28,091 bases of DNA from IMG/VR virus record IMGVR_UViG_3300030109_001599, positions 1-28,091 of that record; one strand, 5' to 3'. The translations under genes were made by a program, and so were the position numbers. Below the pieces are notes generated by a model. The model made no database searches. It was not told where the DNA came from and saw nothing but the letters and a program-made list of their open reading frames with translations. Origin of the DNA: a virus. Taxonomy: Duplodnaviria > Caudoviricetes. Shown here piece after piece: positions 11,249 to 27,468 of this stretch. Every line of letters begins with the position of its first letter. Within the stretch, counting starts at the first letter, position 1.

Positions 11249-11887
11249 TTATACTATTCGACCCCTTGTTTTACCTCTACTTGCGATACCATCACCTCTA
11301 AATTTTTTAATTGTTTTTAATTTAGCTTTTGGTTTTGTTTTTACTTTGCCACCTTTTTTATAAGCTCTTTCTTTTAAACTTTTATCTATTTGATAAGTAG
11401 ATATTCTACGATCATACTCGTCAGGATCCATATCCATAATCCGATCACCTGCTGTATCAGACATAACTCCTCGTCCAGAAAGTATTGCTTCTTGCACAGC
11501 GGCTTCTTCCTCTCTGCCTTTTCTAGTTAAAGGAGAGGGTCTACCACTTTTTCCACCCACTGTTCTCATTCTGTCTTCATACATTTTGACAAGTCTTTTT
11601 TCTTCAGCTTTTGATATGTCTGGGTTGCCTTGAATTTTTTTTCTTACCTTACCAAGAAGCACATCCAGACTTAAAACAGGAAGTGCGCCTGCACCTGCGG
11701 CTAATTGCCTTATCGCAGAACCAGCAGCGGTAGCATCAGGAGCAGTTTCTAATCTTTGAAGTTTTTTATAAAATTGTTGCGTGTAAGCACTATCGCCTCT
11801 TTTTTCTTTTATTTCCGTTTTTGCTTTTGTTCTAGCAAGTTTTTTTTCTGAAGGTGTTAATTCCTCATCATCTTTTTTCTTAGCCAT
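11249..11887 (-). CDS. Basic hypothetical protein with C-terminal YKKGGKV and RGDGIASRG motifs
   Basis: Start moved from 11944 to ATG 11887 (MAKKKDDEEL), preceded by AAGGA; avoids overlap with upstream gene. Confidence 0.65.
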   Translation of the reverse strand: MAKKKDDEELTPSEKKLARTKAKTEIKEKRGDSAYTQQFYKKLQRLETAPDATAAGSAIRQLAAGAGALPVLSLDVLLGKVRKKIQGNPDISKAEEKRLVKMYEDRMRTVGGKSGRPSPLTRKGREEEAAVQEAILSGRGVMSDTAGDRIMDMDPDEYDRRISTYQIDKSLKERAYKKGGKVKTKPKAKLKTIKKFRGDGIASRGKTRGRIV

Positions 11888-16416: not shown

Positions 16417-16776
16417 TTAAGCACGAGAATAACCCCGTGGATCTTCTACAACCGCTTCAACCTGATCGTCGTTAAGTATTCTAAATTCATTACCATGAAC
16501 TTTAAATTTTGTACCGGAGTACAACCTAACTAGGATGAAGTCACCTTTTTTACACCACGGCCCACTTGGAAACTTTTCTTTATCCTTATACGCTAAATCG
16601 CCAACCTCTACAACAAACAAAACAGTTGTACCAAACTCTTCTTGTTTCATTACAGCATCTGGTTTATAAATACCGGATTCACCAAAAGTATCTTCTATTT
16701 CTGGTAAAGCACAAAGAATACGCCAGCCTTGTGGTTTGGGTAATTGTGTTGCTTGAGTGTCATCATTATCAGCCAT
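16417..16776 (-). CDS. groES: GroES (Cpn10)-like co-chaperonin
   Basis: P.GWRIL...SGI...VVEVG...KKGD.IL...YSGT.FKVHGNEFRILNDDQVEAVV matches the Cpn10 pattern. Confidence 0.85.
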   Translation of the reverse strand: MADNDDTQATQLPKPQGWRILCALPEIEDTFGESGIYKPDAVMKQEEFGTTVLFVVEVGDLAYKDKEKFPSGPWCKKGDFILVRLYSGTKFKVHGNEFRILNDDQVEAVVEDPRGYSRA

Positions 16777-19443: not shown

Positions 19444-20952
19444 TTAATAGTATGCGGCTCTTCTACTTGATTTAAAAAACTGAGGAGAGTCTGGCTCATC
19501 TGAAGGTAAAGTTATAAACCCCCCGTTTCTAAATCTAAGCAACGCTTGTGACATTGTATCTACGTAGTCGTCATGTTCTCCAACTGGAAAACTAACAACC
19601 TCTTCAATTACATCTCTTGCCCATCTAGTATCCGGCGCCCATACAATACCAGAAGCAAACAAATCAGAAACTGCATTTACCCTAGATATCTTGTCGTTAC
19701 CACGACTCGGAGTAAACTCATCTACTGGTATCCCCATTCTTCTAAACTCTTGTACTAGTGGTGCGCCTGCTGCTTTTTTCTCTACGAGAAACGAATCCGG
19801 TCGCCAATCTTTGTAATGCTTTAATGCAATCTCTTTTAATTCAGGAAACTCCATTCTATCTTTAAATGCGTCTAGTAATATAATACTAGGACGGTTGTGT
19901 TCTTCCTCATCATACCAAACTCCCCATGTAGTACAAGCAGAATAGTCGGCTGTTGTTTTTGCTTCGTGTGCTGTATCCCAACTTTGAATTACAAACTCGC
20001 ACGGTGGAGGATCTCCCTTTTCCCAAATCTGCCAACTCGTTCTTTTAATAAACGCAGCAGAGTCTGCTGTTGGCTGCTGCATATATTGAGCATTCCAAAA
20101 TCTTGGATCAATGGCAGCTTTCTTTTGTTCTAGCTGGTTCACTGGCCATTGTTCAGGCCATAGACTTTTACCTGATGGTAGTATCGCAGGTAACTCAACC
20201 ACTTCCCACGGATCAGCTTCCGGGTTACGAAGTTGAAAGTTCATTAGCTTACCTGTTAAATCTATTAGACTCCACCTAGTCATAATAACTAGAATGGCTC
20301 CACCCGGCATCAATCGTTGTAGTGGGCCTGTTTGAAACCATGCCCACGCATTCTCAAATGTAGATCGACTGTTTGTTTGTATGTCTTGCTCTGAGTGCGG
20401 ATCATCAATAACAAATAAATCCGCACCACGACCAGCTAACGCGCCGCCCACACCTACTGCGTAATACTGTCCTCCACTAGACGTTGACCATTTGCCTGCA
20501 GCTTTTTGATCTTCTGCTACCTGTGTGTCAGGGAACACTTGTTTATATTCATCAGACACAATTAAGTTTCTTACCCGTCTACCAAAGTCTTCTGATAGTC
20601 CTGCAGTGTGGGTCGCCATAATTACTTTCTTAGTAGGATACTTTCCAAGAAACCATGCGGGAAACAAATAAGAAGAGAACTCTGACTTACCCATACGTGG
20701 AGCAATATTAATAATGACTCTTTTCTTTTTACCGTCTGCTACATCTTTAAATATCTTTGCCAGTTTTCTATGATGCCCCCCTTCTTTAAATCCGGGGTAC
20801 ACGTAGTCAGCAAAACTCAACATAGATTTTTTTGCTTTTTGTAGCTTATACCTTCTCTCCTGTTCTTCGAGTTCTTCTAAAAACTCTAGCTTTTGAGAAG
20901 AAGATAATGTAGCTAATAATTTATTTACGTCGTTTTCGCTTAGGCTTAGCAT
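19444..20952 (-). CDS. terL: Terminase large subunit
   Basis: Walker A IINIAPRMGKS, Walker B LFVIDDP, MTRW coupling motif, nuclease QSWDTA and HDDYVD. Confidence 0.95.
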   Translation of the reverse strand: MLSLSENDVNKLLATLSSSQKLEFLEELEEQERRYKLQKAKKSMLSFADYVYPGFKEGGHHRKLAKIFKDVADGKKKRVIINIAPRMGKSEFSSYLFPAWFLGKYPTKKVIMATHTAGLSEDFGRRVRNLIVSDEYKQVFPDTQVAEDQKAAGKWSTSSGGQYYAVGVGGALAGRGADLFVIDDPHSEQDIQTNSRSTFENAWAWFQTGPLQRLMPGGAILVIMTRWSLIDLTGKLMNFQLRNPEADPWEVVELPAILPSGKSLWPEQWPVNQLEQKKAAIDPRFWNAQYMQQPTADSAAFIKRTSWQIWEKGDPPPCEFVIQSWDTAHEAKTTADYSACTTWGVWYDEEEHNRPSIILLDAFKDRMEFPELKEIALKHYKDWRPDSFLVEKKAAGAPLVQEFRRMGIPVDEFTPSRGNDKISRVNAVSDLFASGIVWAPDTRWARDVIEEVVSFPVGEHDDYVDTMSQALLRFRNGGFITLPSDEPDSPQFFKSSRRAAYY

Positions 20953-21529
20953 TTGGTTTAGCGTCGGTCACATCTTTAACTACAGGTTTAGGCATCACTG
21001 CTTCTAGTGTGTTTAATTTTTCTTTTATCTTTTTGTCTAACTCTGTATCGCTGATCTCAGCTTTTTTAATTTCTACTCTGTCTGTAAATAGTCCAACCTC
21101 TGTGACACGGCCTAGTAACTCTAAAGCCTTTAACCGGATTCGAGCATCCGGGTGGTCTGTCTCTTCAAGGATTTTTGCAACTGTCATTCCTCTTAGTTCT
21201 TTTGCCTGTTCAACAAATGACCAGTCGTATGCAGTTAGCATGCCTACTAATTTTTGTACGGCAGGAGGTGTCGTGAGTTTCGTTAGTGAAACTTTTGCTG
21301 TCTCTACATTTGTGGAAAGAGAATGGAATGCCTCTCGTGCCTGAGTTTCTTGTGCCTGTTCTGTCACAGCTACATCAGTTGCTGCACCTACAGAGTCTAG
21401 CCACTCGGCTGTATTGCTTTGCCCTTCAACTATTTGTTCTGGAGTAGCCTTACGTGCTGTAACAAAGTTACCCTTTGGATCATCAATAACTTTAGGTTCA
21501 GTAGTGTCATCTATTAAATGTTCAAACAA
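20921..21529 (-). CDS. terS: Putative terminase small subunit
   Basis: Directly upstream of and overlapping terL by 32 nt; RLKALELLGRV.EVGLF motif; basic C-terminus; TTG start with GAGGGG RBS. Confidence 0.65.
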   Translation of the reverse strand: MFEHLIDDTTEPKVIDDPKGNFVTARKATPEQIVEGQSNTAEWLDSVGAATDVAVTEQAQETQAREAFHSLSTNVETAKVSLTKLTTPPAVQKLVGMLTAYDWSFVEQAKELRGMTVAKILEETDHPDARIRLKALELLGRVTEVGLFTDRVEIKKAEISDTELDKKIKEKLNTLEAVMPKPVVKDVTDAKPNAKPKRKRRK

Positions 21530-21558: not shown

Positions 21559-21587
21559 TTGCATTACGATTTATGTAAGTGTATTCT
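21559..21587 (+). promoter_or_regulatory. Sigma70-type promoter
   Basis: TTGCAT (21559-21564), 17-nt spacer, TATTCT (21582-21587). Confidence 0.6.
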
Positions 21588-21593
21588 ATCTTT

Positions 21594-21694
21594 ATGTGCT
21601 ACGCAAGCACTGAGAATTTTATATGTTTATTCTCGTAGTCTCCTTTCTTATAGTTGTACATTAAGCCTCGTCTAGTCAACGAGGCTTTTTTTTT
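21594..21694 (+). ncRNA. Candidate small RNA with anti-Shine-Dalgarno segment
   Basis: Lies between a promoter and a terminator with no credible + ORF; hairpins 21596-21610 and 21612-21634; unpaired TCTCCTTTCTT at 21639-21649. Confidence 0.5.
21663..21694 (+). terminator. Rho-independent terminator
   Basis: AAGCCTCGT-CTAGTCA-ACGAGGCTT running into a 9-T tract. Confidence 0.75.
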
Positions 21695-21790
21695 GGCCGG
21701 GTGCTGTCTAATGTTTGACTTGGCTTTACATTTTTTCTGAAATTTGTGTGGATTACTGTTGTACACATATACGCACGTCGTGTACACACA

Positions 21791-21812
21791 GGGGTGGTGG
21801 GGGTGGGGTGGG
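21791..21812 (+). other. G-tract cluster (potential G-quadruplex)
   Basis: GGGG-TGGT-GGGGG-T-GGGG-T-GGG in an AT-rich genome. Confidence 0.55.
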
Positions 21813-21891: not shown

Positions 21892-21921
21892 TAACGTAGC
21901 TACGTTATCGATAACGTAGCT
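21892..21921. promoter_or_regulatory. Overlapping perfect palindromes (operator/terminator-like), copy 1
   Basis: TAACGTAGCTACGTTA (21892-21907) overlaps AGCTACGTTATCGATAACGTAGCT (21898-21921); T run follows. Confidence 0.6.
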
Positions 21922-22439: not shown

Positions 22440-22474
22440 AAAGCTACGTTATCTATAACGTAGCTTTTTTTTTT
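22440..22474 (+). promoter_or_regulatory. Palindrome copy 2, also terminator-like
   Basis: AAAGCTACGTTAT-CT-ATAACGTAGCTTT running into a 10-T tract, intergenic. Confidence 0.6.
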
Positions 22475-23498: not shown

Positions 23499-23820
23499 TG
23501 TCCTGCGTTTAGACAACTTGTCAAACAAAGTGGGCTACCTAAGATCAAGCACCCGTAATGTCTAGTCCAGAAAATGTCCACTATAATATAATAAAATAAA
23601 AATTAAATATATATATATAGAGGGGTAGACAAGTGGACACTTTTTTTTCTGTCCACTTACCCGAAGTTTCCCTGACCCCTTTGCTTTTTTATTTTCCCAT
23701 GTTTTGGTGGACACTTTTGCCCTTAGCCCTTACTGGCAGTACATCTTAACTTACCCACTTCATTTGACAAGTTGTCTAAACCGTGGACATTTCCGAAAAA
23801 AAGTGGACACTTGCCCACTT
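23499..23820. repeat. Dyad-symmetric non-coding element with GTGGACA repeats and AT-rich tract (candidate replication origin)
   Basis: Perfect 19-bp IR 23507-23525/23763-23781; further IR pairs share axis ~23644; GTGGACA or its complement at 23575, 23633, 23650, 23707, 23783, 23803; AT tract 23582-23619. Confidence 0.6.
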
Positions 23821-23832
23821 TCACTACAATCC

Positions 23833-24174: not shown

Positions 24175-24542
24175 TGGAAGAAAAGGAGTATACAAACTAT
24201 TGGAATCAACCTACTGATTTTACAGATGAAGAATGGGACGCTGTACTCAAAGAGTTTAAATATGTATGTAAGATGGGTGAAGATTATATACATGAAGTAA
24301 CTGTTTCTAAAGAACAAAGTCCCAGTATTAGGTTTACTGCAACAGGTTGTGAATCATTCTATATAGGTAAAAGGGCTGAAGATAGTGCTTCAGGCACTAT
24401 TGATTATTGTGAGACAAATGCTAGGACTATAGATATTTATGTATGGCATATGCTTACGTTTTGTCAGATGATTAAAGAGGACTTTACTTGTAGTAGAGAT
24501 TGGTGGTATTGGGAAAAGAAAAGTGAAAAGGAGAAAGCATGA
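24171..24542 (+). CDS. Hypothetical early protein
   Basis: 123 aa, YTNYW...FTDEEW; RBS GGAGGAG; ATGA coupling. Confidence 0.75.
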   Translation: MMEEKEYTNYWNQPTDFTDEEWDAVLKEFKYVCKMGEDYIHEVTVSKEQSPSIRFTATGCESFYIGKRAEDSASGTIDYCETNARTIDIYVWHMLTFCQMIKEDFTCSRDWWYWEKKSEKEKA

Positions 24543-24985
24543 ATACATTAACATTCTTGAATGTTGCAGAACCAAAATATGACAGAGTTTATGATATTGA
24601 TAAAGCTCAAGCATATTTCTTAGCGGTGTGTCCTGTAATACACTTAGAGGAGTTAGAGAAAGAGATTTACAACGGGCTATTTTATAACAAGTCGTATGGA
24701 TTTAAACGCCATTACATCGTGGGCTGGTTAGAAAGGAGACAAAGTTATTTTTACGTCCCAAACCGAATGGATGAGAGAGTGAACAAGGATTTTGTAAAAG
24801 GTTTTGCTGTTACGGACATAGATGATGACGATAACTTACTTGATGACTACTGGTGTGTGATGGCTCACGCTGTGATACATCTTCTAGCAAAGCGTGGGAT
24901 AGACAGGGAAGTAACCGCTCGTAGAAAACACCTTGAACGAGCAAAGCTACCAACTAAAACATTGGTAAGTAACGACTGGAGGTAA
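24539..24985 (+). CDS. Hypothetical early protein
   Basis: 148 aa, RBS AAGGAG, ATGA coupling. Confidence 0.75.
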   Translation: MNTLTFLNVAEPKYDRVYDIDKAQAYFLAVCPVIHLEELEKEIYNGLFYNKSYGFKRHYIVGWLERRQSYFYVPNRMDERVNKDFVKGFAVTDIDDDDNLLDDYWCVMAHAVIHLLAKRGIDREVTARRKHLERAKLPTKTLVSNDWR

Positions 24986-25204: not shown

Positions 25205-25331
25205 ACGTGCATTACCCATCATACTATTACTATTAGCTTTATCAGTTACTGTAGTGTTTATGTATGATATACTTAATTCTACGTTACATAACGTAGCTTG
25301 TAGAACGGACTGTTACACGAAAGGAGAGTGA
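25191..25331 (+). CDS. Small single-TM protein (46 aa)
   Basis: Not in ORF track. RBS AAGGAGG; MKHLERALPIILLLLALSVTVVFMYDILNSTLHNVACRTDCYTKGE. Confidence 0.6.
   Translation: MKHLERALPIILLLLALSVTVVFMYDILNSTLHNVACRTDCYTKGE
25265..25296 (+). promoter_or_regulatory. Extended -10 promoter plus palindrome copy 4
   Basis: TG-A-TATACT (25265-25273) then CTACGTTA-CA-TAACGTAG (25279-25296). Confidence 0.45.
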
Positions 25332-25537: not shown

Positions 25538-25786
25538 ATGAATGAGTTGATAAAGGCAAACGTTAAGTATGAGATTTGCATTAACAAGCTAAAAGCAATA
25601 CAAGCTTGTTGCGAAACTGGTAATTCTTTAATCCCTTGTATAGAACCTCGGGATGTTAAAAGAATAAGAAAGGACTGCAATTGTCCTCACATGACGAACG
25701 TGGAAGTTGGTTTTGTTATGGGTTTACGAGAGAAAGCAGACAGCATCATGGCAATAATTAAAAGAAAGGAGAGTGAAGATGATTGA
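25538..25786 (+). CDS. Small Cys-rich hypothetical protein
   Basis: ATG within family C repeat; six Cys. Confidence 0.7.
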   Translation: MNELIKANVKYEICINKLKAIQACCETGNSLIPCIEPRDVKRIRKDCNCPHMTNVEVGFVMGLREKADSIMAIIKRKESEDD

Positions 25787-26219
25787 TCTAATCGAGATTG
25801 ATGAACAGGGGGATTGGGTATCCCTAACAACGTTAGATGGTCGACAGATTGATTTGAATATCTGGAGGACTGAAGAGAACCATATCCTAATTACTTTTTA
25901 TCCTACAAAACCATCTAAGGACGATCCTAACGTACTAGTAACAGTCGCAGATAAATGGTTTGGTAGTTTTGATTTGACGGAGAAAATGAATAGTACGAAA
26001 GTACTTACTGCTCCTGCTCACATTAAGATTGACCTCTTGCAGAATGGAACTATTAAAGACACCAAAGAAGCTAGGTTGAAACAAGGCTTTGGGTTCTTAG
26101 ATTTGTTGCACTGGGACTTTGTTCTTTATGTAAATAGATCGGGAGAGTTTGTAGCACTAGACTTTTACAACATCAAAACACAAGAATACTTAAAAGGAAA
26201 GGAGAGTGAAGATGAGTGA
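25779..26219 (+). CDS. Hypothetical protein
   Basis: ATG within family C repeat; 146 aa. Confidence 0.7.
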   Translation: MIDLIEIDEQGDWVSLTTLDGRQIDLNIWRTEENHILITFYPTKPSKDDPNVLVTVADKWFGSFDLTEKMNSTKVLTAPAHIKIDLLQNGTIKDTKEARLKQGFGFLDLLHWDFVLYVNRSGEFVALDFYNIKTQEYLKGKESEDE

Positions 26220-26361
26220 ATACGAAGTAAAACCTCGTGCAGAAGTCGAGAGACTTCTGGTTAAGTTTATCGAAGAAAATAAAATTTACGCTCAGTATGG
26301 GAAAGATACTGAGGGTCTGTTAGTTGTACATTTTTTAGTTGAAGAGGAGAAAGGAGAGTGA
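26212..26361 (+). CDS. Small hypothetical protein (49 aa)
   Basis: Not in ORF track. Starts and stops within family C repeats; MSEYEVKPRAEVERLLVKFIEENKIYAQYGKDTEGLLVVHFLVEEEKGE. Confidence 0.7.
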   Translation: MSEYEVKPRAEVERLLVKFIEENKIYAQYGKDTEGLLVVHFLVEEEKGE

Positions 26362-26363
26362 AG

Positions 26364-26660
26364 ATGGATGAACTAGTAGCATTTATTAAACGAGCAGTAA
26401 AGCAGTTGGTTGTGTATGTGGTAATAATTTTTACCACGCTACAGTTTGCAAGGTTTGATCTTGCGTACTGTTACCCTGCACACCAACCATTCCCAACAGA
26501 AGCATACCTATGGCTCATGTGTTTAGGAGCTAGTATTCTTATTGCAGGTAAATTGGCGTGGGATCAGATTAAACCTAACAACCTGTTAGTTGGAGGAAAA
26601 CTAGCATCAATAACAACGTCCACAAGAAGTGTACGTAGAAGAAAAGGAGAACAACTATGA
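26364..26660 (+). CDS. Small membrane protein (2 TM)
   Basis: Two hydrophobic segments; start in family C repeat, stop in family D repeat. Confidence 0.7.
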   Translation: MDELVAFIKRAVKQLVVYVVIIFTTLQFARFDLAYCYPAHQPFPTEAYLWLMCLGASILIAGKLAWDQIKPNNLLVGGKLASITTSTRSVRRRKGEQL

Positions 26661-27022
26661 GTAGATCACATCCTATCTGGATTAACGTACAGGATTTCAA
26701 CACCTACAGAACTAGTAAAAGTTTTGGTGGTAAGAAATCTCTACACCTTGAAGTACGTGTGGGTACATCAGGTACAAACTCGCATCATTTTTGCAATATA
26801 GAGATTCATCGTGAGTCACATCAGCCAATCCCATTGAGCTACGATCAACATGACTACAGGTTTAGACAATACGGAGAAAAAACAGGAGCAAAATTTACGC
26901 TGTACATAGATGGACACGAGTACAAGGCAGCCGTAGTAACAGATAAAAAAGAGTACGTTCCTGAGCGTGAAGTAGTAACCACGTTGAGTAGCGATGGACA
27001 ATTAATCAGACTAGATAAGTAA
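26657..27022 (+). CDS. Hypothetical phage protein
   Basis: 121 aa, MSRSHPIW...SKSFG...VGTS..NSH.F. Confidence 0.75.
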   Translation: MSRSHPIWINVQDFNTYRTSKSFGGKKSLHLEVRVGTSGTNSHHFCNIEIHRESHQPIPLSYDQHDYRFRQYGEKTGAKFTLYIDGHEYKAAVVTDKKEYVPEREVVTTLSSDGQLIRLDK

Positions 27023-27033
27023 AGGAGAACAAC

Positions 27034-27255
27034 ATGGATAAAGAACTAGTAACCGAAGAAGAAAGAACAGAAGTCTACGAGTATCTAACACAACTTCGTG
27101 CTTCTGAAGACGCACCCAACATGATGGAAGCTCCAATGTATTTACGAGCAGAATTTGGCTTTGATAAATACACAGCAAAAACATTAGCATCAGACTGGAG
27201 GAAATGGTTTTCCGAACAGCCAGATGAAACCATTAGAGCAATCGAAAATAAGTAA
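27034..27255 (+). CDS. Small conserved helical phage protein
   Basis: 73 aa, YL..LR.S...NM..A..YL..EFG pattern. Confidence 0.75.
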   Translation: MDKELVTEEERTEVYEYLTQLRASEDAPNMMEAPMYLRAEFGFDKYTAKTLASDWRKWFSEQPDETIRAIENK

Positions 27256-27267
27256 AGGAGAACAACT

Positions 27268-27468
27268 ATGAGTATTGAAAACTGTTGTATATGTGGTGAG
27301 AACATGGCTAAGAAAGCACATGATCCAAGTTGGACACTAGGCAATAACGCAGGTGGGACTGACCCTAGTACGTGGCGGTTTAAACATGGTAAATGTTGTG
27401 ATGACTGCAACAAACACGTCGTCCTACCAGAAAGATTTATGAACATTAGAAAAGGAGAACAACTATGA
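27268..27468 (+). CDS. Small zinc-finger-like protein
   Basis: CCIC ... GNNA ... CCDDCN..VVLP.R. Confidence 0.7.
   Translation: MSIENCCICGENMAKKAHDPSWTLGNNAGGTDPSTWRFKHGKCCDDCNKHVVLPERFMNIRKGEQL

Follow-up and report, generated by a model that had tools for sequence, protein, structure and literature searches.

A candidate small RNA encoded back-to-back with terS and its predicted pairing with early ribosome-binding sites in a family of uncultured phages

Does the stretch upstream of terS in this phage encode a regulatory RNA and, if so, on which messages would it act? The window, i.e. the whole stretch of 28,091 nt analysed here, is part of the genome of a tailed phage that has not been cultured; the late genes (terS, terL, portal, GroES, capsid and lysis) lie on its minus strand and small early genes on its plus strand. 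An original prediction, made from the sequence alone, had placed a small RNA (sRNA) at this locus, with a linker complementary to the ribosome-binding sites (RBSs) of early genes. Comparison with relatives leads us to consider it rather probable that a phage-encoded base-pairing sRNA, with its promoter back-to-back with that of the terS operon, would keep many early and replication genes of the same phage from being translated.

The terminase small subunit gene terS (20921..21529, minus strand), the first of the late operon, was assigned from a weak PHROG match and its position directly upstream of terL; it had no match in any cultured phage, and its relatives were found in roughly 1,300-1,900 IMG/VR stretches. 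TerL was 48-55% identical to that of the seven closest cultured phages, HTVC027P first; HTVC027P and DSL-LC04 have in common with the window family a terL of 52-55% identity and show a different gene order. A GroES co-chaperonin is encoded among the head genes (16417-16776), likewise in these two phages. Of 15 long records, 13 with a completeness of at least 90%, none contained a tyrosine integrase, which suggests that the family is lytic. Two of the three matches to bacterial assemblies fell in Limnohabitans and Polaromonas MAGs (two MAG contigs), a weak hint of Burkholderiales hosts for distant clades that does not extend to the clade of the window. No Pfam family was found for the early proteins tested. 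Elsewhere in the window, the non-coding stretch 23500-23830 has an origin-like appearance: GTGGACA repeats occur in it, its centre is AT-rich and inverted TAGACA/TTGACA boxes lie on either side. A palindrome (GCTACGTTA..TAACGTAGC) is repeated before early genes at 21898-21921, 22440-22467 and 25281-25299, two of the copies having T-tails, as terminators or operators might. In the literature we found no description of this RNA; the seed strings are absent from six supplementary files of Fremin 2023 (PMC10690425), and the RNA may be among the unnamed candidates of that study.

The RNA gene and the promoter shared with terS

The putative sigma70-type promoter of the RNA (21559..21587, plus strand) consists of a -35 box, TTGCAT (21559-21564), and a -10 box, TATTCT (21582-21587), separated by 17 bp, and it is kept in relatives. 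An RNA of about 99 nt would start around 21594 and end at 21694 (21594..21694, plus strand, both ends predicted). Its predicted fold comprises a 5' hairpin (21596..21610), the DNA of which holds the terS -35 box, a second hairpin (21611..21635) with a variable loop and a stem kept in 6/6 clade sequences, and an intrinsic terminator (21663..21694; stem at 21663-21687 followed by a T-run) in which the clade shows one compensatory and two wobble changes. Between them lie a putative anti-start segment, CUCGUAG (21632..21638), read from the sequence and from duplex predictions, and an unpaired seed (21639..21655) made of a UCUCCU core and its extension. This region is formed by the linker TCTCCTTTCTT (21639-21649) and the adjoining 3' 8-mer ATAGTTGT (21650-21657), all features being on the plus strand. 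On re-checking, the coordinates of the original prediction were all correct, and its outline of about 100 nt with two hairpins, a linker and a strong terminator on the plus strand agreed with both coordinates and predicted fold. The 20-codon minus-strand ORF, whose translation the original prediction had named as a refuting alternative, has no ATG in the close relatives L003, L007 and L010.

Local statistics were modest: the fold, with two hairpins and an unpaired linker, had a z of -2.47 and was equalled in stability by 2 of 200 shuffles, and a plain scan of the window did not list the RNA promoter among the 22 found (20.5 expected), so that support for this promoter is comparative and the case as a whole rests on comparison. 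Contigs from three RNA-labelled runs (0.05 of the words) lay over terS and one early gene and none over the RNA, a result that is uninformative for an RNA of 99 nt.

Absent from the original prediction was the finding that the -10 of the RNA is palindromic and doubles as the -10 of the predicted terS promoter (21578..21606, minus strand), which overlaps that of the RNA and whose -35 TTGCGT (21606-21601) and -10 TACACT (21583-21578) are 17 bp apart. The predicted terS start (around 21571) lies 23 bp from that of the RNA. Bidirectional promoters with reciprocally overlapping -10 elements have been described in which the starts are 10, 18 or 23 bp apart, 23 bp being common (PMC12825309), and the overlapping -10 boxes and predicted spacing found here are those of a bidirectional sigma70 promoter. 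A promoter common to terS suggests late expression of the RNA; according to the same report, however, when one direction is activated the other is often repressed. This speaks against RNA and terS simply being expressed together late, and makes a steady damping of early genes as plausible. An early protein of a relative (L297:7747-8304), with a weak match to the PHROG transcriptional activator phrog_1324, is a candidate regulator of the shared promoter.

Two further observations concern the surroundings of the RNA. Just past the terminator (21705-21720), a palindrome TGTCWA-N4-TWGACA is conserved in most relatives and is often followed 17-18 bp on by TATAAT/TATAAA, possibly an operator overlapping a rightward promoter. 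A G-tract between the RNA and the first early gene (21791-21812) is conserved family-wide; among 224 contigs, 39 have their end in the region 100-500 nt upstream of terS, compared with 14-24 per later 500-nt bin, as a packaging site or an assembly break would produce.

Conservation, loss and co-variation with early starts

Relatives were compared at 220 non-identical terS loci, corresponding to 67 clades defined at 75% terS identity, leaving out 16 loci with <200 nt upstream and L113 (a frameshifted match). The terminators of L003, L005 and L241, missed by the script, were re-scored by eye as present. The palindromic -10 scored 9-10 of 10 at 191 of the 220 loci, a terminator was found downstream at 199, and terminator and UCUCC core together at 184 (67 clades, 40-60% terS identity); judged from the sequences, the recurrence of a predicted promoter, unpaired core and terminator beside terS is far from chance. 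In the first 80 loci the predicted RNA length ranged from 72 to 176 nt (median 95) and the core was unpaired at about 0.8 (clade average), with the letters 5' of it mostly paired. A hairpin and the terminator follow the seed in most relatives, the hairpin having almost no sequence conservation and its pairing retained; in the clade of the window this middle hairpin is missing and an unpaired U-rich linker takes its place. Both 3' helices co-varied (score 0.34 on a MAFFT alignment, reached in 0/500 shuffles). Pair counts were used here instead of RNAalifold, which gave only 3 pairs for 24 diverged sequences because of poor alignment; the alignment A9 among these counts is model-fitted and includes 5 host sequences. 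Some loci depart from the common plan: the clade of L167, L181, L245, L246, L250, L251 and L254 has an RNA with two anti-SD motifs, one at the extreme 5' end; L084:1080-1255 carries an insert of about 100 nt in the 5' part, core and terminator being intact (176 nt vs 75-78 in its clade); and L188, L194, L196, L189, L252 and L242 have promoter and terminator and no clear UCUCC core, possibly as retargeted or different RNAs.

Loss of the RNA was informative. At the 18 loci without it, which belong to five clades, the plus-strand -10 T was lost in 16 and the overlapping terS -10 was intact, whereas 196 of the 199 terminator-bearing loci kept this T, and the same contrast was seen in close kin (~90% terS identity) between L061/L062/L066, which have the RNA, and L076/L087/L090, which do not. 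As the plus-strand -10 decays with RNA loss while that of terS stays, the plus-strand promoter appears to exist for the RNA. A strand test by folding energy was rejected, since the plus strand was better in 20/24 clades, yet also in 19/21 for a control stretch.

As for the predicted targets inside the window, the claimed 11-nt complement of the linker (AAGAAAGGAGA) indeed has a single plus-strand copy, at 25762, and the 8-nt core match (AAAGGAGA) is present at all nine early junctions previously named, with further copies at 24732 (inside a gene), at 11529 and at two minus-strand sites in the portal gene. The nine putative early RBSs, all on the plus strand, precede the genes at 24539 (24527..24534, AAAGGAGA), 25334 (25320..25327, GTGAAGATG family), 25779 (25762..25772, the 11-nt match and best predicted target inside the window), 26212 (26198..26205), 26364 (26350..26357), 26657 (26643..26650, ACAACTATG family), 27034 (27021..27028), 27268 (27254..27261) and 27465 (27451..27458), the last encoding an AAA ATPase. 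The anti-start segment can in addition pair with CUAUGAG of the ACAACUAUG family, with a 4-nt target bulge and a G-U at the AUG. When the 50 window starts, obtained like all others with our own SD-weighted caller, were ranked for RNA pairing, 9 of the top 10 were early. A generic anti-SD oligo, however, separated early from late window starts as well as the RNA did (p=6e-7 vs 4e-5), indicating that an early-over-late preference alone is generic, a caveat which the original prediction had already raised.

Clades were then compared. Many of their RNAs contain CAU-spacer-UCUCCU, which is complementary to an SD together with its spacer and AUG, and the letters of the spacer change from clade to clade alongside the early RBSs (AGCAA types, ACAAC types in L044, a GGCAGC type in L058/L068). 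Co-variation was measured in a clade-by-clade matrix of duplex energies with row and column means removed, leaving out clades with <10 early starts and clade 17 (unclear core). Over 32 terS clades the RNA paired better with its own early starts than with those of others (residual -0.83 kcal/mol). The first 13 clades gave -1.15 kcal/mol (p<5e-5) and 16 held-out clades, fetched afterwards, -0.75 (p<2e-5); shuffling the seed flanks lowered the residual to -0.22 ± 0.15. Own-clade preference was present in 15 of 16 disjoint nearest-neighbour sister pairs (p=8e-4), and late starts showed none (4/11 pairs, residual +0.36). The longest exact complement was longer at early than at late starts in 24/25 clades, and when the ten best starts were taken from each of 10 whole or near-whole genomes, 89 of these 100 lay on the early strand, where polymerase, helicase, primase and ATPase genes are found (p<0.05 in 9/10; no difference between early and late in G007, p=0.32). 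The commonest seed complement had 1-7 early-strand copies in 6/10 phage genomes.

The early RBSs themselves followed the presence of the RNA in part. AGGAGA was found in 647/1490 early RBSs of RNA-bearing loci vs 71/698 late ones, and in 0/27 and 0/12 early RBSs of the wholly RNA-less clades 14 and 22; RNA-less members of clade 12 retain it (15/23, the same as RNA-bearing ones), which counts against the proposed action. Tests based on wobble pairs were weak: asymmetry counts were 177 v 158, and the anti-AUG triplet was CAU in 61/120, wobble-compatible in 16/120 and other in 43/120. Taken with the correlated loss, the co-variation of linker and junctions that the original prediction had named as a check supports its central proposal, a putative sRNA gene divergent from terS with a linker directed at standardised early RBSs.

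Likeness to host RF02278 RNAs and alternative readings

The best Rfam match to the window RNA was RF02278, the Betaproteobacteria toxic sRNA (32.1 bits, E 6e-4), whose gathering score of 50 was reached in 0/20 phage loci (24.9-32.1 bits); the best score among 14 loci was 30.4. The RF02278 double-hairpin RNAs of Burkholderia (ncS03, ncS05, ncS27, ncS62), as described in PMC5688073 and PMC4603805, expose an unpaired UCUCCU anti-RBS stretch as the phage RNA is predicted to do, and the order of parts, i.e. seed, hairpin, U-rich linker and GCCCC-type terminator, recurs in phage relatives, some of whose terminators are nearly identical to host ones. Unlike in the host RNAs, the middle hairpin of the phage RNAs is free in sequence, and the phage hairpins lack the second conserved CU-rich stretch (CCACCCUC) of the first host hairpin; the phage RNAs are moreover phage-borne, fixed on the bidirectional terS promoter, and have seed flanks that track phage early RBSs. 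Host RF02278 copies, which arrange their parts in this order and end in a terminator much like that of the phage RNAs, were present in 28/31 Limnohabitans-genus genomes. When 26 genomes were searched with the phage-RNA model R1, the RF02278 locus was the only match in 8 of the 9 with a match (E 0.01-0.04; scoring was limited to 150 candidates in each genome). R1 misses the window's own RNA at E<=0.1 and had no match in the HTVC027P and DSL-LC04 stretches. As the layout matches RF02278 below the cut-off, the phage RNA is likely to be an sRNA of host type whose targets have become phage early mRNAs. It probably descends from, or converged on, the Burkholderiales RF02278 RNAs and would work like them, though below gathering it is not classed as a member.

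This likeness also feeds an alternative that we hold unlikely, namely that the RNA is real and acts mainly on host mRNAs as ncS27 does, for host shut-off or metabolic rerouting, the matches at phage RBSs reflecting a common host RBS style. A core of 6-8 nt pairs with any AGGAGA, the anatomy is that of the host family, and ncS27 overexpression has been reported to slow growth (PMC5688073). Late phage genes, however, use the same ribosomes and show no own-clade preference, and phage seeds were better than host-type seeds on their own early RBSs in 25/32 clades. The commonest full seed complement (14/15 nt) was also absent from 30 Limnohabitans-genus candidate host genomes, the single match being the phage contig itself, a comparison that leans on the weak host assignment (two MAG contigs, distant clades).

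A quite improbable alternative is that the RNA mainly controls one gene, the weaker matches being a by-product of strong SDs. It is suggested by the close relative L009 (96% terS identity), which extends past the end of the window and encodes at L009:744-1034 a 97-aa protein predicted to be a winged-helix DNA binder from Atlas features only (0.89-0.94), with no Pfam family. The RBS of this gene matches 21639-21655 exactly and colinearly as a complement of 17 nt (-31 kcal/mol) and stands first among 47 starts. Other exact matches to the window RNA at early starts, at 11 nt, fall far short of it, and 200 shuffles gave 13 nt at most. The site, which also speaks for the main reading, is invariant in 5/5 loci, one being the same contig as L009, and other alleles of the clade pair with it at -30.9, -27.7, -26.0 and -19.4. 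With accessibility included, though, it is barely ahead (-22.9) of array sites (-22.4, -22.0); it is mean pairing, not just the top site, that co-varies across clades; and in other clades full-length sites occur in several nearly identical copies, for instance 7 in G002. A separate point, against the main reading, is that nothing beyond an ordinary match was seen at the winged-helix homologue of the L044 clade.

The same 17-nt match speaks against one element of the original prediction, a permuted two-site pairing in which the 3' 8-mer would bind ACAACUAU separately. The P1 c4 and P4 CI antisense RNAs use two separate pairing sites together. In the window's clade the 3' 8-mer varies among five alleles (pairing to ACAACUAU at -9.6, -9.3, -5.0, -4.3 and -2.9 kcal/mol), and on one target a 3-nt RNA linker would, by geometry, have to span 16 stacked pairs. 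Since the colinear match covers AUAGUU, permuted pairing is not needed, and we rejected it. Rfam C4 had no match to the window RNA at E<=5 and none at gathering in the loci tested, and the window RNA is not a c4/CI member.

Least probable is the absence of any regulatory RNA. On the minus strand the element would then be an RBS with its start codon, belonging to a lost gene or a leader peptide and placed behind a bidirectional terminator, and it would resemble early RBSs through having been copied from one. In favour of this, 91/184 loci have an ATG at 3-10 nt behind the SD of the minus strand, an inverted RBS next to a terminator can imitate the RNA model (second match in G003) and repeat recombination could yield co-variation without function. 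Against it, 93/184 loci have no such ATG (26 clades none, 12 mixed), and the ORFs either span 1-29 codons or continue into terS, with no frame preferred (17/16/9). The terS promoter is situated between site and terS, so that the terS mRNA would exclude the site. The window's own ORF is absent from the close relatives named above, and loci that have lost the element show a decayed plus-strand -10. Had RBS repeats been copied into the seed, the promoter, the terminator and the accessibility would still lack an explanation. The minus-strand leader ORF was rejected on these grounds.

Proposed action, related systems and implications

Returning to an sRNA that silences early genes, we propose that it would be made from the promoter shared with the terS late operon and would pair over SD, spacer and start codon of early mRNAs, blocking their translation. 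The unpaired UCUCCU core would nucleate on AGGAGA, and pairing would then spread into spacer and AUG in most clades; in the clade of the window it would spread upstream of the SD instead, the tightest site being the RBS of the predicted winged-helix regulator. The predicted promoter, seed and U-rich terminator are hallmarks of Hfq-dependent trans-acting sRNAs, and host Hfq may assist through the U-rich linker and terminator, as no phage-encoded Hfq was found in 5/5 genomes. A role as early-to-late shut-off is the weakest step and falls just short of an even proposition; constitutive damping of early expression fits equally well.

Among the phage RNAs reviewed in PMC12197685, the P1/P7 c4 antisense RNA is likewise phage-encoded and trans-acting and blocks the RBS region of a phage mRNA, as predicted for the window RNA, but it targets the ant operon in temperate-phage immunity, whereas the RNA described here would have many targets with a shared RBS in phages of which 15/15 records showed no tyrosine integrase. 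P22 sar, lambda OOP and aQ and the PAK_P4 antisense RNAs also repress phage genes and shape development; they are cis-encoded and single-target, while the window RNA is encoded kilobases from many predicted targets. VpdS (VP882) and PreS (lambda) resemble it as Hfq-dependent, host-type phage sRNAs of the lytic cycle, but their main action is on host RNAs or Hfq, and the part of that review which treats them describes no shared-RBS regulon.

A partial analogy only, from phages unrelated in kind and sequence, is offered by the SAS of cluster K mycobacteriophages, a standardised extended RBS at non-structural genes described as being of unknown function (PMC3203893, PMC11373665, PMC12699233). K1 phages contain one reversed SAS copy, which in Adephagia (JF704105) lies in the gene 92-93 gap (L331:28660-28715) and reads as the anti-SAS loop of a long hairpin where late transcription starts. 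In the stretches examined (11 records), the loop was present in 3/4 Anayavirus records, degenerate in 2/2 Unicornvirus and absent from 5 others: Anaya and Biglebops also have it, it is degenerate in Bryler and PhelpsODU, and it was not found in the stretches of Scarlett, Keshu, ZoeJ, Kratio, Aminay and Boilgate.

A wider reading, which we offer tentatively and regard as rather doubtful taken whole, is that a lytic family captured a toxic host sRNA, wired it to a late promoter and co-evolved with it an extended early RBS, thus creating a protein-free early-to-late translational switch. If true, the same one-RNA logic may explain the K1 SAS repeats, whose late leader displays the anti-SAS loop. 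With the loop of Adephagia, the SAS question, which dates from 2011, can be put to the test in a cultured phage that grows on M. smegmatis. The phage regulatory RNAs named above from PMC12197685 act as cis-antisense, on a single operon or on the host; in the family described here, a single RNA appears to co-evolve with a whole class of RBSs. RNA-less lineages would serve as natural knockouts and the clades as natural orthogonal seed/RBS pairs, and the arrangement may offer a reason why phage early genes often have extended RBS repeats in common.
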